Virus record (IMG/VR): IMGVR_UViG_3300005841_000939
DNA length: 64,000 nt
Reading direction: 5' to 3' (one strand)
DNA from: a virus
Taxonomy: Duplodnaviria; Caudoviricetes
The translations under genes and the position numbers were made by a program. Under the pieces are notes generated by a model that saw only the letters and a list, made by a program, of their open reading frames with translations, ran no database searches and was not told the DNA's origin. This document shows, one piece after another, positions 8,991-29,986 of the stretch (its first letter is position 1; every line of letters starts with the position of its first letter).

Positions 8991-10952
8991 TTATCCACGA
9001 ATAACAACTTCTGAGAAGTCAGTACCAGTCGCAACGTTAGTGAATGTCAACTTGATGAATTCAGCAACCTTAGTTGGTTTGACCAAGATTTCTGCATACA
9101 ATTCATTTGAATCAATTGCTTCTGGTGAGTTATTAGTTTCATCACAAACAACCAAATAGTCATAGACGCCACGGCGAGCTTTGATATCTGCCAAGAATGG
9201 TGTTACGATTCCACGGAAACGTGTTCTTGTGAAATCATCGTTGAACTCAAACAACATATAGCGAGCCATTTTGTTGATTGATTTTTCCAAGTGCAAGAAT
9301 AAGCGACGTACGTTGATACGATCAAATGCTGATGCTTTTGCTTGAAGAGTCTTTTGACCGAAGATAACAATTCCTTCACCTTGGAATTTAACGATTGGAT
9401 TGATTCTATTGTAGTAAAGAACATCGCGTTGTGCTTTGTTTGGATTTACTGCAACGTCAACAACGTTACTGATGATACCACGGTTCAAACCTGCTGGTGC
9501 AAACCATTGTGCATCATTGAAATCAGTGAATGCCATAACAGCAGCACAATAGCCTGATGCTGGAACCCAACGATAAACTTCAGCAAATCTGTCAAAAATC
9601 TTGAAGTAGTTGCCGTAGATTGCTGAATAAGATGAATTGATGTTCAAGATATTTGAAACATAATTCTTCATACTCAAGAATGATTGTGCAACTGGACGAT
9701 AATTTGCAGGATTTAAAATGTATTGCAATGGAACGTTCAAAATAGCGAAGCAGTCACGACGAACTGTACTTGCCAATTGATCAATATATTGTTTAACAAC
9801 ATCATTGTAATCAGGGTCAAGTAACAAATCAACTTCAACATCTTCTGTTGATGAGAATTGAGTTTCCCATTGTGTGAGAATTTCACCAGTCAAATCGTTG
9901 AGACTTGAACCTGGAACATCACCAGTAAGGGGATCTGCACCACCAAGATAGGTCTTGCGTGTTGAAACGAGTGTTACGCCTGATGCGCCTTCTTCATCTC
10001 CACCAATGAAGAAATAGATGTATTGATCATTATCATTGACCAATTTTGGTCCAAAGATCATGTTTCCAATAGCATCGCGCTTTTCTGGATCATTTGAGAA
10101 CACATATTGATTTGTAACGTTATCAAATTCATCAAAAACAATCAATGCAGCTTCATCAGGAGTATCAGGACCATGTTCAAATGCAGTGACAATGTTCAAC
10201 ATTTCACGATTAACAAACCATGCAGTTGAAGGAGCAACTGGTGGTGTCAAAACTTCGTACTTGATCAATGAGTTTGAAAGATAATCAACTGCACTTGTTG
10301 CAGTTGTTCCTGGGGTACCATTGTAATATTTGTCAGCGATAATGTTGACAGCTTGTTGAGTGGTTGCACCAGCCAATTCTGCCTTCATTTCTTGAAGGAG
10401 TGCAAAGTCTTCACTATTTACGACGAGAACTGAAATATCATCATAATATGGGCCTGGACCAACACCATAGAAGTGATACAAATCTTCGGTATACAAATTG
10501 TTTGCTGGGTTATCCAATTCACCAGCACCAGTTCCTGGAGGAAGAGTGTAATCCTTCTTTGCTTCGTGTGATTTGATGTCATCGTATGACAATGGGAACA
10601 ATTCAGTTGGCTTTGTAGTTACATCATCCAAAACGATGTTACCGAGTCCACTTGCACTAATACCGATTGTTACGCCAGCAACTTTCTTTGTTTTGTCTTC
10701 AACGCGAACAGCGTACAATTGATTAGATTGCTTTAAAAACGCTTCGGCAGTAAACCAGTGAGTGTAATTTGTGTTGTTTGGTCTGCCAAGGATAGTTTCC
10801 AAATCACTTGGATTGGTGAGCAAGATACGCTTGTTCACTGGACCTTTGACCGAATGCATGACGATGGCACCAACAGCACTTGTGACAGATGGGATAACTT
10901 GTTGGGTATCGCGCTCTGTAAAAGTTACGGCAGGAGAAAGATTTGTAGGCAT
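8991..10952 (-). CDS. gp18: Contractile tail sheath protein
   Basis: MPTNLSPAVTFTERD start; WFAPAGLNRG, LYYNRINPI, FGQKTL, AFDRINVRRLF, FEFNDDFTR, IKPTKVAEF-like C-terminus. Confidence 0.97.
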   Translation of the reverse strand: MPTNLSPAVTFTERDTQQVIPSVTSAVGAIVMHSVKGPVNKRILLTNPSDLETILGRPNNTNYTHWFTAEAFLKQSNQLYAVRVEDKTKKVAGVTIGISASGLGNIVLDDVTTKPTELFPLSYDDIKSHEAKKDYTLPPGTGAGELDNPANNLYTEDLYHFYGVGPGPYYDDISVLVVNSEDFALLQEMKAELAGATTQQAVNIIADKYYNGTPGTTATSAVDYLSNSLIKYEVLTPPVAPSTAWFVNREMLNIVTAFEHGPDTPDEAALIVFDEFDNVTNQYVFSNDPEKRDAIGNMIFGPKLVNDNDQYIYFFIGGDEEGASGVTLVSTRKTYLGGADPLTGDVPGSSLNDLTGEILTQWETQFSSTEDVEVDLLLDPDYNDVVKQYIDQLASTVRRDCFAILNVPLQYILNPANYRPVAQSFLSMKNYVSNILNINSSYSAIYGNYFKIFDRFAEVYRWVPASGYCAAVMAFTDFNDAQWFAPAGLNRGIISNVVDVAVNPNKAQRDVLYYNRINPIVKFQGEGIVIFGQKTLQAKASAFDRINVRRLFLHLEKSINKMARYMLFEFNDDFTRTRFRGIVTPFLADIKARRGVYDYLVVCDETNNSPEAIDSNELYAEILVKPTKVAEFIKLTFTNVATGTDFSEVVIRG

Positions 10953-10995: not shown

Positions 10996-11003
10996 TATTT
11001 ATA
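10996..11003 (-). promoter_or_regulatory. T4-type late promoter TATAAATA
   Basis: Exact motif in the gp17-gp18 intergenic region, upstream of the sheath gene. Confidence 0.8.
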
Positions 11004-11031: not shown

Positions 11032-12639
11032 TTAATATCGCAGATTATTCCATTCATCTTGCTCAAGCCAATTCTCAGGATTTGATTTTCTATCAGCTTC
11101 AAAGAACCCCTCAATAGCGTCAGCAGCTTCAGAATTACTCAATTCTCCACTTTCAAGAACATCATGAACATTATTTAGATCGCCAAACTTCCAAGTACTA
11201 CGTTCATCTGCATAATAAGTTGATGCCATGAAATACGCTGCCCACATGCAAGTTATTACACAGTCATCGTGTAAGTTCTTACCAGTTTTAGCTTTAAATA
11301 CTCCAGGAGAAACTTCTTCAAAGATACCAATTTCATCAATTGTCAAACTATCTTTCAATATGATAGTTCCACCTTCTAATTGTTCTTTAAACTTCAATGC
11401 AGCAATTGGTTTTGATTTTTTGGTAGAAAATACACCATATGCCCCATCATTTTCCATGTCCATGAAGATATTTTCATATTCAAAATCATTGAAAAGACGA
11501 CTTATAACTTCATTTGAAAGTCCGTTTACTTCACCAATAACATAAGCATTGTTCCAATATTCGCATGTCTCATGAACAACAGCAGCAAATTCATTGGGAG
11601 GAGTTCTGTTATTGACCCATATAGCAACTTGAACTGCATTACCTTCAGTTATATCAAAAATATTCATAACTGAGTTATCTGAACCAACTCCACCAGAAGT
11701 ATCTATGGCTACAAGATATTTTCTTCCAGGAATAGACTTTACCCAAATCTTTGTTGAATCATCGGGTTGAAATTCTGGTTCAACATATTTCAACTTATTA
11801 ATTATAAAGTCAGCATCAATCAACGTAACAGTAGATCCTTGGAATTGATTGCCATATTCTTGAGCAAATTTAATCTTTCCAATATTTCTAATTGTTTCTT
11901 CTTTCCATGCTTCATCGCGTCCTGGAACTTCATGCCAGTCAACTTTAACAGGATAAAAAGTATTTCTCTTATCAATTGCATCTTTCCAAATCTTGTAATA
12001 TAAGTTACCTGTACCATTTGGTGTAGAAACGATGATAGCACGTCCACCAGTTGAAAGAGTTGGATAATTTGATGTCCAGAAAGGATCAGCAATATTTGAT
12101 GGAACGAATGCAAATTCGTCAGAAAGCAATAATGAGATAGACTCGCCACGAAGCGCATCAGTACTTGTAGCTTTAGCAAAAATCTTCGTACCATTATCAA
12201 AAGTAATTGAGAAAGCATTGTATTCAACAACTCCAGGCTTCATGTAGGCAGGCATTTGCTCATATGCAAATTTTATATCTGCTAAAATACTCTTTGCAGT
12301 ATCGGCTTTGTTAGCGAGAATTGCTAAAGTTTTGTCCTTATTGAACATAGCAAACCATAAAAAGTAAATACAACAAATAGTTGTTTTACCAATTTGACGC
12401 GCAGAGAGAACAACACAGAAACGATTTTCTTCAAAAGCTTTCAACATTCTTTTTTGATAATCGCGCAAATCAATAAGCTGTGCACCTGTAACTGGATTGA
12501 CAATATAGAAAAAGTTTTGAGCAAAAAACATGATGTCTCTTGCAGCTTGAGCAAAATTCATTACCATTGTTTGATCAAACTGGATTGTTTGATTAGGTCG
12601 TTTTACTGAACTATTTTTATCGTCATATTTAATTGTCAT
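11032..12639 (-). CDS. gp17: Terminase large subunit
   Basis: Walker A SARQIGKTT, Walker B LLLSDEFAF, coupling motif STPNG, nuclease motifs IDTSGGVGSD and HDDCV. Confidence 0.97.
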   Translation of the reverse strand: MTIKYDDKNSSVKRPNQTIQFDQTMVMNFAQAARDIMFFAQNFFYIVNPVTGAQLIDLRDYQKRMLKAFEENRFCVVLSARQIGKTTICCIYFLWFAMFNKDKTLAILANKADTAKSILADIKFAYEQMPAYMKPGVVEYNAFSITFDNGTKIFAKATSTDALRGESISLLLSDEFAFVPSNIADPFWTSNYPTLSTGGRAIIVSTPNGTGNLYYKIWKDAIDKRNTFYPVKVDWHEVPGRDEAWKEETIRNIGKIKFAQEYGNQFQGSTVTLIDADFIINKLKYVEPEFQPDDSTKIWVKSIPGRKYLVAIDTSGGVGSDNSVMNIFDITEGNAVQVAIWVNNRTPPNEFAAVVHETCEYWNNAYVIGEVNGLSNEVISRLFNDFEYENIFMDMENDGAYGVFSTKKSKPIAALKFKEQLEGGTIILKDSLTIDEIGIFEEVSPGVFKAKTGKNLHDDCVITCMWAAYFMASTYYADERSTWKFGDLNNVHDVLESGELSNSEAADAIEGFFEADRKSNPENWLEQDEWNNLRY

Positions 12640-13295
12640 GATTTATCCGAATCAGATGGAACAAATAAAACTGGTGTTAATAACAACTGCCCATCAATTG
12701 CTTTTTTAAAATATTCTCTGAAAATATCATTTCTTTTACTTGATGAATTTATATGTATTTGAAAAGCATTTGATGCATATACTGGAGGATATATTGACAT
12801 AAAAAAATCATTCATCATTGTTTTTTCACCATAACTAAAATCATCAGAAACTAATAAACTCACTGATATTCCTCTACAAACATTTGATGTAGTTCGTGAA
12901 AAAACAATAACACTACCTGTTCCTTCAAAAACAATTTTTCCCTTATTACATATGACGAGAGGTGGCTTTAACCATTCTGGTATTGATTCATATGCATTTT
13001 TAATTATTTCAAAGTTTTCGGATATAGTGTATTCTTTAGGAGATACCATAAAAACAACTTTATTTTCATGAAATAATGCGTACCATAATGAAAAAATACA
13101 GGTAATTAGAGTTATTCCACATGGTTTTAAAGTATCAATGATACAACTATTTCTATTTTGAAAATCCAACAGCATTTCTTTTTGTTCATTTGTCAAAACA
13201 ATAGGTGAAGACATATATGATAAACGAAAGAAATTTTCTGCAAAAAATATCACATCAGTAGATGCATTTTTGTAGTATTCTTCACGTTCCATCAT
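12636..13295 (-). CDS. Degenerate terminase ATPase-domain paralogue, no nuclease domain
   Basis: Collinear by eye with the N-terminal half of the adjacent gp17 (DVIFFAENFF vs DIMFFAQNFF; RGISVSLLVSDDFSY vs RGESISLLLSDEFAF). Walker A and B are altered. 4-nt overlaps with both neighbours. Confidence 0.85.
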   Translation of the reverse strand: MMEREEYYKNASTDVIFFAENFFRLSYMSSPIVLTNEQKEMLLDFQNRNSCIIDTLKPCGITLITCIFSLWYALFHENKVVFMVSPKEYTISENFEIIKNAYESIPEWLKPPLVICNKGKIVFEGTGSVIVFSRTTSNVCRGISVSLLVSDDFSYGEKTMMNDFFMSIYPPVYASNAFQIHINSSSKRNDIFREYFKKAIDGQLLLTPVLFVPSDSDKS

Positions 13296-13900
13296 GGATC
13301 CTTTTTATCTTTATCGTCTGGATCTTCACGTATAACAACATCTTGTGCTTGTTCTTCTCTTCTCGCATTGCCACCAATAATATCCTTCTTCATCAACAAT
13401 TCCATCAAATCATTCGTTGATCCAACCATTAAAATATTATTATTTCCATGCATAACTGGCTGACCAGCAGACATTTCCAATGCTTGTTTTTTCAAGTCAA
13501 TCTTTTCACGCTCAAAACCAATTTTAGCATTATAAACCTTAATTTGATTCATATTTGAAATTAAACTATTGATTGCTGAAATCATACTTGCAGCAGTTTC
13601 AACATCTCGGCCTCTTGGTGATCCTTCAATTTCTAATTGCAATGCATTTAACATTGACATACCTTGACCAACCATTTGCTTGATTACAGTATTCATATAA
13701 TCATCTGTTGTTGGTAAGTCATCTAATTGTTTTAATTTTTCTTTAAATGCTTTTACTTGTGCTTGACGTTCTTCAATTAAACGCAATTCGCGTTCTGCCT
13801 CTTGATCATCAAACGCAGTTGAAGAATCAATATTTAAAATATCTTCTAATTTCTTGAAAGATTTACTTTGTTTCTTCTTTTCATCATCTTCATTTGACAT
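13292..13900 (-). CDS. gp16: Terminase small subunit
   Basis: SPRGRDVETAASMI and NNNILMVGSTNDLMELL match the gp16 pattern HPRAYEV...NN.LFVGST.EL..LL; upstream of gp17. Confidence 0.8.
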   Translation of the reverse strand: MSNEDDEKKKQSKSFKKLEDILNIDSSTAFDDQEAERELRLIEERQAQVKAFKEKLKQLDDLPTTDDYMNTVIKQMVGQGMSMLNALQLEIEGSPRGRDVETAASMISAINSLISNMNQIKVYNAKIGFEREKIDLKKQALEMSAGQPVMHGNNNILMVGSTNDLMELLMKKDIIGGNARREEQAQDVVIREDPDDKDKKDP

Positions 13901-13906
13901 AAACCC

Positions 13907-15022
13907 TCAATCTGGATATGATTCGTTCGGTATCAATTGAACTGAACCAATCGGTAAACCGTCTCCAGTAAAATGTTGTAATAAACTAATTATAGACACA
14001 ATATTGTTTTCATTCATAAACTCTTGCCAATAATGTGAAATTATCTTTGTTTCTTGATCAACAATAACGCGTGGATTTTTCAACACTGGACCTTGACAAG
14101 ATGAAATCCCTGGAGTAGTTGAATCATAAACTGGCTCTGGTGGTGTTACATCACCACAACTATTATCAACACATTGCTGATAGCCAGGAACCATTGCTTC
14201 GTTTGCTTCTTTCCAAAACTTGATCATTTGGTTGTAACCATCTACATCATCAAAATCAAAACCTTTTATTTTTGGTAAAACTGCAAACTCATTAGAAACG
14301 ACATCAGATTCTGGCTCATATATTATTAATTTTGAACCTTCAAATGGAACTTTTCTACATGGAACATTATTGATAGTAATACGTGAACATAAAATATCTG
14401 GTGTCAATTCCATTGGCTTGAACATTGTAGCTTCAACAATAAAAGTAAAATTCCATTGTAATATTCTGCGTTCATTTTCGCCATATTCGTAAAAATGGTT
14501 TTGATTTACGCCTTGCATCGTTACTTTAGCTTTGTGTTCTAATCCAAAATTTCTTTCTTTATATGAAATAAAAACTTGCGGTGCAAAGAATGGAAGAATA
14601 TTTTCAACTATTTGATAACCATCTTCTGCATATTTTGCCCAAACAGAAACTTCAAAAGTCAAATCATATGGAATAGGATTTAAGTCTGTTTGTTTTACTC
14701 TCTTACCTTTATCTGTTTCGTATTCAACATTTAAAAGTCTTTTATCATATTTACCAGCTTGACGATCAGGTGCCCAATTTATTCCACTATTAACAATTGA
14801 AATGCGAGGTAAATAATTATCAACTTGTGGATCAACATCATTTACTGAGCCTTTTTGTAAAATTGCAGCTATTTTTTCTTTTGGTTGCAATCCACATGCC
14901 ACTGGTTTTGCTCCTACTATTTCTCCATCTTTAGAATAAACACGGGTTGACATTCCAGTAAACATTTCACTGAAAGCGGCAACAACCGTGTATATTGAAC
15001 GTGGATAAAAGTAAGATTTCAT
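13907..15022 (-). CDS. gp15: Tail sheath stabiliser / tail completion protein
   Basis: YFYPRSI...FSEMF, PKEK, LPRISI, PIPYDLTFEVSVWAKYAEDGYQIVENILPFF. Confidence 0.9.
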   Translation of the reverse strand: MKSYFYPRSIYTVVAAFSEMFTGMSTRVYSKDGEIVGAKPVACGLQPKEKIAAILQKGSVNDVDPQVDNYLPRISIVNSGINWAPDRQAGKYDKRLLNVEYETDKGKRVKQTDLNPIPYDLTFEVSVWAKYAEDGYQIVENILPFFAPQVFISYKERNFGLEHKAKVTMQGVNQNHFYEYGENERRILQWNFTFIVEATMFKPMELTPDILCSRITINNVPCRKVPFEGSKLIIYEPESDVVSNEFAVLPKIKGFDFDDVDGYNQMIKFWKEANEAMVPGYQQCVDNSCGDVTPPEPVYDSTTPGISSCQGPVLKNPRVIVDQETKIISHYWQEFMNENNIVSIISLLQHFTGDGLPIGSVQLIPNESYPD

Positions 15023-16427: not shown

Positions 16428-16435
16428 TATTTATA
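16428..16435 (-). promoter_or_regulatory. T4-type late promoter TATAAATA
   Basis: Exact motif 6 nt upstream of the gp14 ATG. Confidence 0.75.
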
Positions 16436-24075: not shown

Positions 24076-25851
24076 TTAAGCGAAACTATCTAAGTTATCG
24101 CTTCCTCCTTTTTCATTTCCACTAGATTCTTCTCCACTTCCAGTTTCAGAAGAAGTTGATTCTTTATCATTTGATGAATCTTTTTCATTTCCTGATTTAG
24201 AACTATCTTTATCTAAATCAGCAAGATCATCTAAGCTATCTTTACTTCCCCCACCTTTACTGCTAGAACCTCCACTATCACTACTTCCTCCACCACCCGA
24301 ACCACCAGCGCCACTAGCTTCATATTCATTCTTATCTTTTTGAAGCCAGAAATCATTTTCAGCAATATCATCATCACTGAATTTCAAGAATTTGCGCATC
24401 AACCATTGCAATGAAAGAAGTGGTTTCTTACCACTGTCTTCATCACTTTCACTGTAACTTACGAAGCGTTCAAAGTTTTCTGAGCGGCGGGTAAGAATAT
24501 CTGTTTCAAGGGCTTCTTCAAACAAGTTGTTACCAATCATGTCAACACGATAATCAAATTCATTGATACCATATTCGTCAGCATAACCTTTTAGACGTAA
24601 ATGACTGATAAAAATTTGTGAGAAAATATCTTTAAAACGATCAACAAATTGTAGAACCATTTTATGGAAACGTACTTCTTCGCGTGTAATGTCTGATGTA
24701 TCGCCAAGACTAAATCCTGTATCAGATTTAACGCGACTCATTGGAATACGCATTGCGCGATACAGTTTATCTAAAAAGTATAGGACGTCATCAATTTGAC
24801 CAAGATTATCGCCGCCAGCTAATGTGTCTACCTTACTACCTTTTCCATTTTGTGATGGAAACCAGAAGTCTTCAATCATTGCTAATGTATCAATAGTTTG
24901 ACTTGTTTCGCCAGTTGTTGGATCAAAAGTTTTTCTTTGACGATATTTCTTCATCAAATTTTGTACATATTGTTCAGCTTTTGCTTTAGGGAGATTACCA
25001 ACTTCAATTGTAAAAATACGACGTTCAGGAGCATGCACCAAACGATAAATTACAAGGGCATCTTCCATTTGACGTAGCTTGCGATAATCAACCTTTGCAA
25101 CATCAAGATATGATCTTACAATCTTCTCATAACGATTAGGACGATCATAAATGCCAGAATTAGCATAAGCTACCATCTCTGTTGGCATTTGAATGATATT
25201 GGTTTCGTTCTTGTGTAAGAAGAATGCAATGTTGTCACTTTCACTTTCTTCCCACAAAGGGAAGGTATATTCTGGCAACAAATGTTTAACTCTAAGGATT
25301 CCACGTTCTTTAGCTGTGATTGGATCAACAACTTTTTCTAAGAATATTTCACCTTCAATCATGTATGCAGTGAACCATTCGTAAATATATTTACGAACAT
25401 TGATAACTTCATTCATCAAATAATCCCACTCCTTGTGGAGATTGGCCATTACATTTTTATTTTGTTGAAAAAGTGGATTAGTAATTGTTAATTGAATTAC
25501 TTGATCTTCTGATGAGAAATTTATTGCTTCATCTTGAATTTCACCCAATGCGAATGAAATTTCTGGAAATAATGCCATACCACGATAAAGTGCTAAGCGT
25601 TGTCCTTTTGGTTGTTCAGTGGCATGAAGAAATGTATTGAAATTTGCCGATTGATTTGCGAATTCGCCTGGTACTGCTGTAACAGTTACATCTTCCATTT
25701 CAGTCGCAGATGGAATGGTTTGGCGGCCATACTTATCACCTTGACGATCAAAAGTATTATAAATTCTTTTGTAGTGAAGTTGTTGCTGATCCTTAGTCCA
25801 ATTGTTTCTGCGGACGAATGGCGATAAAATTCTTGAGAAAAAGTCAGACAT
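24076..25851 (-). CDS. gp20: Portal vertex protein
   Basis: YRGMALFPEI, LRQMEDALVIYRLVHAPERRIFTIEVGNLPKAKAEQY, EDFWFP, GDNLGQIDDV, EITREE-like; Ser/Gly/Asp-rich C-terminal tail. Confidence 0.97.
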   Translation of the reverse strand: MSDFFSRILSPFVRRNNWTKDQQQLHYKRIYNTFDRQGDKYGRQTIPSATEMEDVTVTAVPGEFANQSANFNTFLHATEQPKGQRLALYRGMALFPEISFALGEIQDEAINFSSEDQVIQLTITNPLFQQNKNVMANLHKEWDYLMNEVINVRKYIYEWFTAYMIEGEIFLEKVVDPITAKERGILRVKHLLPEYTFPLWEESESDNIAFFLHKNETNIIQMPTEMVAYANSGIYDRPNRYEKIVRSYLDVAKVDYRKLRQMEDALVIYRLVHAPERRIFTIEVGNLPKAKAEQYVQNLMKKYRQRKTFDPTTGETSQTIDTLAMIEDFWFPSQNGKGSKVDTLAGGDNLGQIDDVLYFLDKLYRAMRIPMSRVKSDTGFSLGDTSDITREEVRFHKMVLQFVDRFKDIFSQIFISHLRLKGYADEYGINEFDYRVDMIGNNLFEEALETDILTRRSENFERFVSYSESDEDSGKKPLLSLQWLMRKFLKFSDDDIAENDFWLQKDKNEYEASGAGGSGGGGSSDSGGSSSKGGGSKDSLDDLADLDKDSSKSGNEKDSSNDKESTSSETGSGEESSGNEKGGSDNLDSFA

Positions 25852-25911
25852 TTCGTTTCCTGTTAATTATTATAATACCCTGAGTTTAATTATAATGTTT
25901 ATACACCCCTA

Positions 25912-25919
25912 TATTTATA
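25912..25919 (-). promoter_or_regulatory. T4-type late promoter TATAAATA (portal operon)
   Basis: Exact motif upstream of gp20. Confidence 0.75.
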
Positions 25920-25967
25920 CACTTTATTGACCATTGAACCCTGATTTCATAAAGTTGTATTCCCTTA

Positions 25968-25975
25968 TATAAATA
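25968..25975 (+). promoter_or_regulatory. T4-type late promoter TATAAATA
   Basis: Exact motif 20 nt upstream of the ATG at 25996. Confidence 0.7.
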
Positions 25976-25995
25976 ATTATTGGGAATACAACTTT

Positions 25996-26892
25996 ATGAA
26001 ATGTAATGTATGTAATAAAATTTTTGATAATTTTAGAAAACTTTCTAAGCATATCAGGGATAATCATAAAGAATTTTCAATTCAAAAATATTACGATACT
26101 TTTGTAAAAAAGGAAAAAGAAGGTTTATGTCCAATATGCAACGCTCCAACAAATTTTGCATCTATATCTAAAGGATATCATTTAATTTGCTCATCGCGTA
26201 AATGTGCATGCACATTTAACAGAGACAAATTAAGAAAAAATCCAGAAAAATTTAATTTATTTAAAGAAAAAGTATCTAAAAATTTAAAAAACATGTGGAA
26301 ATTTAAAGATAATTCTTTAAGAGTATCAAAAACAACAAAAACTAGGAATAAATGGGTTGAAACTTTATCAGATGATGAACGATCTGAAATTTTTGGATGG
26401 TTAAATAAATTATCACCAGAAGAAAAATCAATAAAATGCAAAGAGTTATTAGATAAAACATTGTTTAAATGGTGGAAAAATGCATCAGATGAACAAAAGC
26501 AACAAACATATAAAAAAATTGTAGAAACAAAAATTAAAAACGGAACATGTCTACCCGAATCAGAAGAATATAATTATTTAAATTACAAAAAACAAGTTAG
26601 AAAACTATCTGAACAAAATTACAAAAAATATAAGGAATTTATAAACCCAAACAACTTAATACGTTCAAGAAAAATGCAACTTGATCATCGTGTTAGCATA
26701 TTTAATGGATTTATTTTAGGTATACCAAAAGAAATCATTGCAAGTCCATATAATTTAGAACTTTTAGATGGATATAAAAATAATCAAAAACACAAAAACA
26801 ATTCTATTTCAATTGAGGAATTATGTCAAAATTTCAAAAAAGTATATTCATCCCAACAAATCCAAAAAAATACAAAGGAAAAACTCCGGTAA
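25996..26892 (+). mobile_element. Putative free-standing HNH homing endonuclease with Zn-finger modules
   Basis: N-terminal C2H2 finger (CNVC...HIRDNH), a CPIC...CSSRKC module, and C-terminal LDHRVS...NLELL...NNQKH HNH-like motif. Very Lys/Asn- and AT-rich; overlaps gp4 by 70 nt. Confidence 0.6.
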
Positions 26893-29105: not shown

Positions 29106-29600
29106 TTATTCCTTAGACAATTGATTATTTATACATTCTTGCCACCCATAAGTGGCAATAGCTAATGCATCTGACATTCCGTCATGTGGCTTTTTGCTTC
29201 TTGGTGTAGCTAAAAGACTTACTTGAGGATATTTAGCTGTAATAAATGCAATTGTGTCTTCCTTTTCATGCTTTTCATCACCCATGAGAGTTTTTTGCCA
29301 TTTTCTAGGTCCAACTGTAACTATTTTGAATCCAAGTGCTTCCATAACGCCATGCAGCCCACCGGTACCCCAACCGAAACGAAACATGGATGTTACTCCT
29401 TGTCCTGGCATGGCATGAACTTGTTCAATGTAAATGATGTCTGGATTTAAATTTTTTAGCAATAATGCTACCGATCTAAAATCCAATTCATCTTTATCTT
29501 GTGAACTAGTTCTAATTGGCATTGGAGTTACAGATACTGTTGTATCATCAATATACGCTATTCCACCTTTTTGACCTGGATCTATACCTACAAGTTTCAT
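29106..29600 (-). CDS. ruvC: RuvC-like Holliday junction resolvase
   Basis: VGIDPG, IYIEQV, SMFRFG, DGMSDALAIA: the acidic RuvC catalytic set. Confidence 0.85.
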   Translation of the reverse strand: MKLVGIDPGQKGGIAYIDDTTVSVTPMPIRTSSQDKDELDFRSVALLLKNLNPDIIYIEQVHAMPGQGVTSMFRFGWGTGGLHGVMEALGFKIVTVGPRKWQKTLMGDEKHEKEDTIAFITAKYPQVSLLATPRSKKPHDGMSDALAIATYGWQECINNQLSKE

Positions 29601-29986
29601 TATTCTACTTTCTTTATAGATTCAGATATTTTAGTTTTAATTTCTCTAGTTTGTTCTTCCGTAAAAAATCTATTTTTTACAATTTTCCCATCCTCAAAAA
29701 ACAATTTATGACGTTCATTCATGAAATCATTTGAATCTGAAATATTATAATATTTTAGGATTTCTTTGATTGCATCTTCGTATAAAACATATTTTTCTCT
29801 TTCCAAATTGATAAGTAATTTTTCTATTATTTTCAATAATGGTGCAACTTCTTTGTCTTTTTTACATAATTCTCTAAGAATAGTATGAACATCATCATCT
29901 TCTAACAAAGTATTTGATGCTTTCTTCTTAGCTATACGGATTTCTTCAAGTGTTTGCTCTAACTGATTTTTTATAATTGAATCCAT
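29600..29986 (-). CDS. Hypothetical protein
   Basis: 128-aa ORF coupled to the RuvC-like gene by a 1-nt overlap. Confidence 0.65.
   Translation of the reverse strand: MDSIIKNQLEQTLEEIRIAKKKASNTLLEDDDVHTILRELCKKDKEVAPLLKIIEKLLINLEREKYVLYEDAIKEILKYYNISDSNDFMNERHKLFFEDGKIVKNRFFTEEQTREIKTKISESIKKVE

Follow-up and report, generated by a model that had tools for sequence, protein, structure and literature searches.

Terminases are textbook two-subunit machines, built from a small (TerS) and a large (TerL) subunit, and bacterial immune sensors count them among their major targets. In some phages an additional gene accompanies this pair. "Truncated large terminases" have been noted beside terL in Rak2-like phages and in the Sinorhizobium phages phiM12 and phiN3 (PMC5259590), and in phage CBB a further, incomplete gene with a gp17 domain, CBB_274, stands beside terL, CBB_275 (Buttimer et al. 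2017, PMC5259590). The extra gp17-domain gene was called unusual and left unexplained in that report, and we found no functional study in the literature on truncated large terminases and terminase decoys. Here we analysed a 219-residue open reading frame (ORF) of this kind, located at positions 12636..13295 on the minus strand of a 64,000-nucleotide stretch (the window) of the virus record IMGVR_UViG_3300005841_000939 (Duplodnaviria; Caudoviricetes). The source phage is uncultured and is represented by a contig of about 380 kb assembled in rhizosphere metagenomes. The ORF is a new member of this briefly noted and unexplained kind, fully dead and very divergent. We propose, with a probability of roughly 45%, that it is a genuine gene kept by selection, a paralog of the TerL ATPase core without enzymatic activity, whose most likely role is that of an accessory or regulatory terminase subunit.

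The phiM12 record reads gp13-gp14-gp15-gp16 (terS)-gp17.2-gp17 (terL)-gp18, with 4-nucleotide overlaps on both sides of gp17.2. Its gp17.2 (AB690_gp090, 196 residues, annotated "terminase DNA packaging enzyme large subunit") occupies the same slot as the ORF, and both are truncated TerL ATPase cores of similar size devoid of a nuclease domain. The two proteins share only 22% identity, however, and gp17.2 keeps the Walker A GKT and the Walker B DE that the ORF has lost, and may thus have retained ATP binding or hydrolysis. Rak2-like jumbo phages of the T4 superfamily also possess, like the source phage, an incomplete gp17-domain gene directly upstream of terL, but no terS lies between or before it and this copy is far more diverged than the ORF. 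We considered gp3 of phage 121Q (L011:1570-2253), which sits at the Rak2-like truncated-terminase position, as a relative of the ORF. This was not confirmed, as BLASTP detected no similarity of gp3 to its own TerL or to the ORF and no Pfam family matched it; the published truncated-terminase assignment at that position rests on weaker, domain-level evidence. The relation of the ORF to gp17.2 and to 121Q gp3 thus comes down to 22% identity and to no BLAST similarity, respectively, and in trees it is blurred by an ORF branch of 2.1-2.3 substitutions per site. T4 vs.8 and Ksap2 are, like the ORF, stand-alone phage proteins with a TerL ATPase fold (PMC13601566, PMC11564622). In contrast to the ORF, vs.8 has intact Walker motifs and sits outside the packaging module, while Ksap2 resembles TerL by fold only. 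We also rejected the ORF as a vs.8-like paralog, because the family profile finds only gp17 in T4 and because the ORF motifs are dead.

The ORF shares two features with the truncated large terminases, namely homology to the ATPase domain without a nuclease domain and a co-oriented position directly upstream of terL within a packaging module of the T4 superfamily. By BLASTP its residues 8-209 align with residues 29-231 of the adjacent 535-residue TerL at 31% identity (expectation value, E, of 8e-32). It is matched by the PHROG TerL family phrog_5989 (E 2.6e-31) and by T4 gp17 (PDB 2o0h, E 3e-14), and TerL-type profiles recognise it at E 1e-50 or better; the Pfam Terminase_6N match (E 0.21) stays under its cut-off. 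An AlphaFold2 model computed from an alignment of 42 relatives reached a mean predicted local distance difference test score (pLDDT) of 90.7 and a predicted template modelling score of 0.90, and its best structural match in Foldseek is the T4 gp17 ATPase domain (2o0j, template modelling score 0.87). BLASTP, the PDB match and the model with its Foldseek match agree on an additional-strand catalytic-E (ASCE)/RecA-like ATPase fold homologous to the N-terminal domain of gp17. The initial annotation had described a 219-residue ORF aligning with the gp17 ATPase domain, and these data bear it out. It had further described the product as the ATPase domain alone. The C-terminal RNase H-like nuclease domain is indeed absent from the ORF, without any Terminase_6C match, but the truncation goes further: the ORF breaks off around TerL residue 243 (the VPGRDE-equivalent position), so that some 50 additional residues of the ATPase domain are gone, from residue 243 to the start of the nuclease near residues 300-311. 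The ORF therefore covers only the ATPase core, less than the whole ATPase domain.

The motif changes listed in the initial annotation all hold, their alignment and coordinates having been verified. The Walker A motif, or P-loop (13107..13133, minus strand), reads TLKPCGITL in place of the SARQIGKTT of TerL, with the lysine changed to isoleucine, the preceding arginine to lysine and the glutamine to proline. At the Walker B position (12840..12845, minus strand) a DD remnant is found, in which the aspartate stays and the catalytic glutamate has become an aspartate, and SSS replaces the STP of the coupling (C) motif (12738..12746, minus strand). The ORF has hence lost the G-K-T/S and preceding arginine, the Asp-Glu pair and the S/T-T-P that define a TerL-type enzyme, and we consider it to be catalytically inert. 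Lacking canonical ATP binding and hydrolysis, such a protein would have to act by binding. Conserved positions without a catalytic role have, in contrast, been kept. The adenine-binding glutamine (Q38) and the Walker B aspartate (D151) are still present, and so is an Arg-Gly pair, R141-G142 (12870..12875, minus strand). In the profile alignment the column of this pair is the only difference between the wild-type P74-26 TerL structure (4zni) and its R139A variant (4znj), which aligns R141 of the ORF with R139, the published trans-acting arginine finger.

To see how often such copies occur, we took the 150 top-ranking homologs of the ORF, calling a protein dead when both the Walker A lysine and the catalytic glutamate were missing, and short when it had at most 320 residues. 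Dead proteins made up 18 of the 39 short homologs, compared to 2 of the 96 longer ones (p 8e-10), and their lengths cluster at 242-270 residues (P0248, P0136, P0141, P0194, P0240, P0208 and others). In five of the six genomic contexts that we looked up, the dead copy sits 0-2 genes upstream of terL. In the metagenome locus L010 the order is terS, dead copy, terL with 4-nucleotide overlaps; in L008/L009 it is gp15, dead copy, terS, terL; in L017/L018 (a 368-kb contig) the dead copy overlaps the start of terL; in L019 it precedes terL, tube and sheath genes; and in L020 two genes separate it from terL. The remaining locus, L007, carries two tandem dead copies on a short contig without terL. L017 has gp32 and RecA genes downstream, as in 121Q, and is Rak2-like by this comparison.

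The 17 dead copies that were aligned, the ORF included, share a motif pattern. The lysine and the glutamate are gone from all 17, while the P-loop arginine and the Q motif are each kept in 16, and the finger position holds an arginine in 13 and a lysine in 3. Loss of a protein's own ATP site combined with retention of the residue that acts on its neighbour's site is the pattern one would expect of a non-catalytic partner subunit. The ORF conforms to it in having lost the lysine and the glutamate and kept the arginine-finger Arg-Gly and the Q motif. It departs from it in its P-loop, where Arg-Gln has become Lys-Pro, and in its size, other copies having about 250 residues and ending after F-x-Q-E; its identity to the metagenomic dead copies is 25-29%. 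The tree of the dead copies forces at least 3 changes, with 8 on the best tree, and does not point to one common origin.

Several features of these loci were noted in passing. On L007 the two tandem dead copies (L007:2-1044), a partial one with Walker B "VDNF" and then P0141, are followed by a zinc-finger-containing ORF resembling a homing endonuclease. On L010 a homing-endonuclease-like gene with a Cys-rich N-terminus (L010:3-527) lies just upstream of the terS-dead copy-terL block, an observation according to which mobile genes seem frequent in the packaging module. TerL genes of this clade are themselves often interrupted (P0016, P0024, P0028, P0030, P0032, P0063, P0064, P0072), either by intein or LAGLIDADG domains (PF14528, PF14890, PF05204) or by division into halves of about 300 residues, and at L020:5761-9006 a 124-residue N-terminal piece of TerL is split from the remainder by a 380-residue gene.

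A truncated and inactive copy might simply be a dispensable relic, left by recombination or duplication, useless, kept in frame inside an essential operon and heading for loss. The state of the reading frame bears directly on this explanation. At the base composition of the ORF (27.7% guanine plus cytosine, GC), the chance of 219 consecutive open codons is about 2e-9; stops number 5-28 in the other five frames across the same stretch. In a simulation, the resident TerL segment was left to drift neutrally down to 31% identity under the base composition of the ORF. The 2000 runs accumulated a mean of 12.5 in-frame stops and none of them stayed open, from which we conclude that selection held the frame open through most of its divergence. 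The ORF thus shows neither of the marks of a pseudogene, frame disruption or neutral evolution, and it is neither a chance frame nor a freely drifting relic. This agrees with the initial annotation, which had argued for an intact, translationally coupled gene against a decaying pseudogene. The good scores against TerL-type profiles and the high pLDDT, the selective conservation of non-catalytic positions and the occurrence of comparable copies beside terL in many lineages also speak against a relic.

A number of observations nevertheless weigh against a maintained accessory subunit, and most of them would suit a relic. The ORF is unique to the source phage. An exhaustive phmmer search of 1.84 billion representative sequences retrieved below E 1e-30 only the ORF itself and no homolog above about 38% identity; the next matches were ordinary TerLs and fragments at 25-39% identity. 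In the five closest relatives that we examined, whose TerLs are 56-74% identical to that of the source phage, terS abuts or overlaps terL directly, and a profile scan of their loci detected one TerL-like frame each and no counterpart of the ORF, so that this clade of phages evidently packages DNA without it. The terminal branch of the ORF is the longest of its class, its GC content lies in the lowest 2% of the window, and its GC content at third codon positions is 15% compared to 22.6% for terL. It alone among the 17 dead copies has lost the P-loop arginine (the glutamine being changed as well), it is some 35 residues shorter than comparable copies, and no other member of its class is more degenerate. 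Degeneracy, long branch, short length and low GC are also compatible with a gene in the process of being lost. Since every contig carrying the ORF is identical, no ratio of nonsynonymous to synonymous substitutions (dN/dS) or polymorphisms (pN/pS) could be obtained, and the expression, the binding partner and the effect of the ORF product are deduced from sequence. Finally, translation of terL may need an open upstream frame, in which case polar nonsense mutations would be purged even if the protein were useless. Weighing both sides, we regard the relic as plausible but less likely than the accessory subunit, of which it is the most serious competitor.

The contig L001 matches the window at 100% identity, and in four rhizosphere sequencing runs the covered parts of the ORF were free of variants. 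A closely related strain is indicated by low-depth contigs of two further rhizosphere runs, which carry single-base variants at 13610, 13643, 13712 and 13897 (in terS) and at 9756, 15185, 15879 and 15905; none falls within the covered parts of the ORF. The lowest-GC stretches of the window (23-27%) are found at 25700-26700 and 29400-29800, the ORF being the next-lowest island of the stretch studied.

Searches beyond phmmer gave the same picture of an isolated sequence. A word-indexed search returned the ORF itself alone, a scan of IMG/VR found no close relative of it, and its only matches in the ESM Atlas were fragments and generic Terminase_6N clusters. Among cultured phage records the ORF matched true TerLs alone, at about 30% identity, and the 50,697 phage records searched included no near relative of the source phage. 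When two other dead copies served as queries, the scans returned nothing or a single 31% match. According to the initial annotation, occurrence in this genome only, together with a dN/dS near 1, would have spoken for a neutral relic. Taken literally, the first of these is the situation of the ORF, but analogous copies exist elsewhere and the point is not decisive. The gp16-[dead gp17N]-gp17 order is absent from the five nearest relatives and present in L010, while phiM12 has a gene in the same slot but with intact motifs.

Since the five relatives lack it, the ORF is a recent gain in this lineage. Trees leave it unplaced, and its placement as sister to the resident TerL is neither rejected nor supported (approximately unbiased test, p 0.35). 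Over the same columns the resident TerL pair (P0003/P0004) is separated by only about 0.24 substitutions per site. A fresh local duplication is made less likely by these values, as the copy would have had to evolve at more than 20 times the rate of TerL while avoiding stops. The ORF also scores higher against the dead-copy profile (171 bits) than against the live TerL profile, which includes the clade of its neighbour (155 bits), and this order persisted when the motifs were masked (153.5 vs 141.8 bits). The P0003/P0004 divergence, the GC content in the lowest 2% and the better fit to the dead-copy profile favour the acquisition of a diverged copy, and we consider horizontal acquisition of an already dead copy more probable than local duplication. 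A repeat scan detected no direct or inverted repeats flanking the ORF as marks of insertion.

The genes around the ORF form a T4-like late gene run on the minus strand, in the order gp15-like, TerS-like, ORF, TerL and then tail sheath. The gp15-like tail sheath stabiliser (13907..15022, minus strand) lies upstream in the same operon and was assigned from PF16724 on the identical gene of L001. The TerS-like gene (13292..13900, minus strand; 202 residues) occupies the gp16 position, matches phrog_445 (E 1.4e-4) and shares 58% identity with the gene that stands immediately before terL in the closest relative. The TerL (11032..12639, minus strand) is intact, with Terminase_6N, Terminase_6C and every motif present. 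As stated in the initial annotation, the ORF overlaps both neighbours by 4 nucleotides: an ATGA at 13292-13295 joins the TerS-like stop to the ORF start, and an ATGA at 12636-12639 joins the ORF stop to the ATG of TerL. A Shine-Dalgarno-like AAGGA stands 4 nucleotides ahead of the ORF ATG. A box resembling a T4 late promoter, TATAAATA, is found at 16428..16435 (minus strand), 7 nucleotides upstream of the first gene in the run that contains terS, the ORF and terL, and the next such box (10996-11003, minus strand) precedes the sheath gene; the window contains 15 of these boxes compared to 7.4 expected. No terminator-like site and no internal promoter was detected on the minus strand between the two boxes. 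From the bracketing boxes and the absence of terminator-like sites between them we infer that the ORF is co-transcribed with terS and terL.

An order of terS, copy and terL with 4-nucleotide overlaps recurs in cultured phiM12 and in the metagenome locus L010, which belong to unrelated T4-like phages. This recurrence next to terL, together with the conserved arginine finger, makes a regulatory subunit the reading most consistent with our findings. The ORF product would be made from the late packaging operon, translationally coupled with TerS and TerL. It could dock on TerL through its preserved subunit-interface face, which carries the trans-acting arginine finger, or alternatively on TerS through the TerS-binding ATPase core. 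Once docked, it might tune the ATPase or the nuclease activity of TerL, or its assembly, at the initiation of packaging. It would probably not be itself a working member of the translocating ring, since neither the nuclease domain nor the C-terminal portion of the ATPase domain is present.

The same missing parts bear on a different idea, in which the dead subunit would be a weapon between phages, a dominant-negative protein that joins or caps the TerL of co-infecting phages and thereby poisons it. Docking in T4 needs both the nuclease domain and the C-terminal portion of the ATPase domain, and the ORF possesses neither. Being made stoichiometrically from the same mRNA, the protein would also poison the TerL of its own phage, and nothing in our data points to specificity. 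The ring-interface arginine is kept in the ORF, and T4 packaging rings are reported to accept inactive subunits (PMC8589836), but we hold this possibility to be very remote.

The initial annotation had put forward two functions, a decoy or inhibitor of terminase-sensing immunity and a regulatory subunit of the packaging motor. The second is the one that fits best, whereas the first is disfavoured by what is known of the sensors. The idea is that the ORF would mislead or inhibit TerL sensors (Avs1-3, Upx), or that its dead P-loop was selected for invisibility. It has some appeal, as sensors recognise the TerL ATPase domain alone and small TerL-like activators have been suggested by the same authors to be possible anti-defence proteins (PMC13601566); low GC content and patchy distribution also resemble those of accessory or arms-race genes. 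SeAvs3, however, reads the active-site residues of TerL and the bound ATP, and the EcAvs2 interface is sealed by an ATP touching the gamma-phosphate of the TerL-bound ATP (PMC13601566). Without the lysine and the arginine of the P-loop, the ORF should not present the features read by SeAvs3 and EcAvs2, and would mimic TerL poorly; the most that its dead site could achieve is to hide it from the sensors. The TerL-ATPase look-alikes tested so far, T4 vs.8 and Ksap2, activate Avs2 instead of blocking it (PMC13601566, PMC11564622). Coupling to the late packaging operon and the constant adjacency to terL also point to packaging, and not to early anti-defence. A role in counter-defence is on these grounds improbable.

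The accessory subunit could be part of something more general. The dead N-terminal TerL copies, the ORF among them, might constitute a widespread and so far undescribed class of pseudo-ATPase subunits, forming a heteromeric terminase with TerL. Having given up their own ATP site and kept the arginine finger, they would complete or gate the active site of the neighbouring TerL. The non-catalytic alpha subunit of F1-ATPase does this for beta, and inactive subunits act likewise in clamp loaders. The analogy makes this extension attractive, but we regard it as rather doubtful. If it were true, many T4-like and jumbo phages would initiate packaging with a complex that contains a third type of subunit.

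The ORF adds to these genes a very divergent, fully dead and lineage-specific example, which alone does not reveal their function. The most useful lead is the motif pattern of the class, which so far received a few sentences in genome papers and was never studied; cultured carriers such as phiM12 and the Rak2-like phages make it testable. A recurrent third gene in the packaging operon suggests that the terminase may possess an unrecognised regulatory subunit, or that a further player takes part in the terminase-centred conflict between phages and their hosts.

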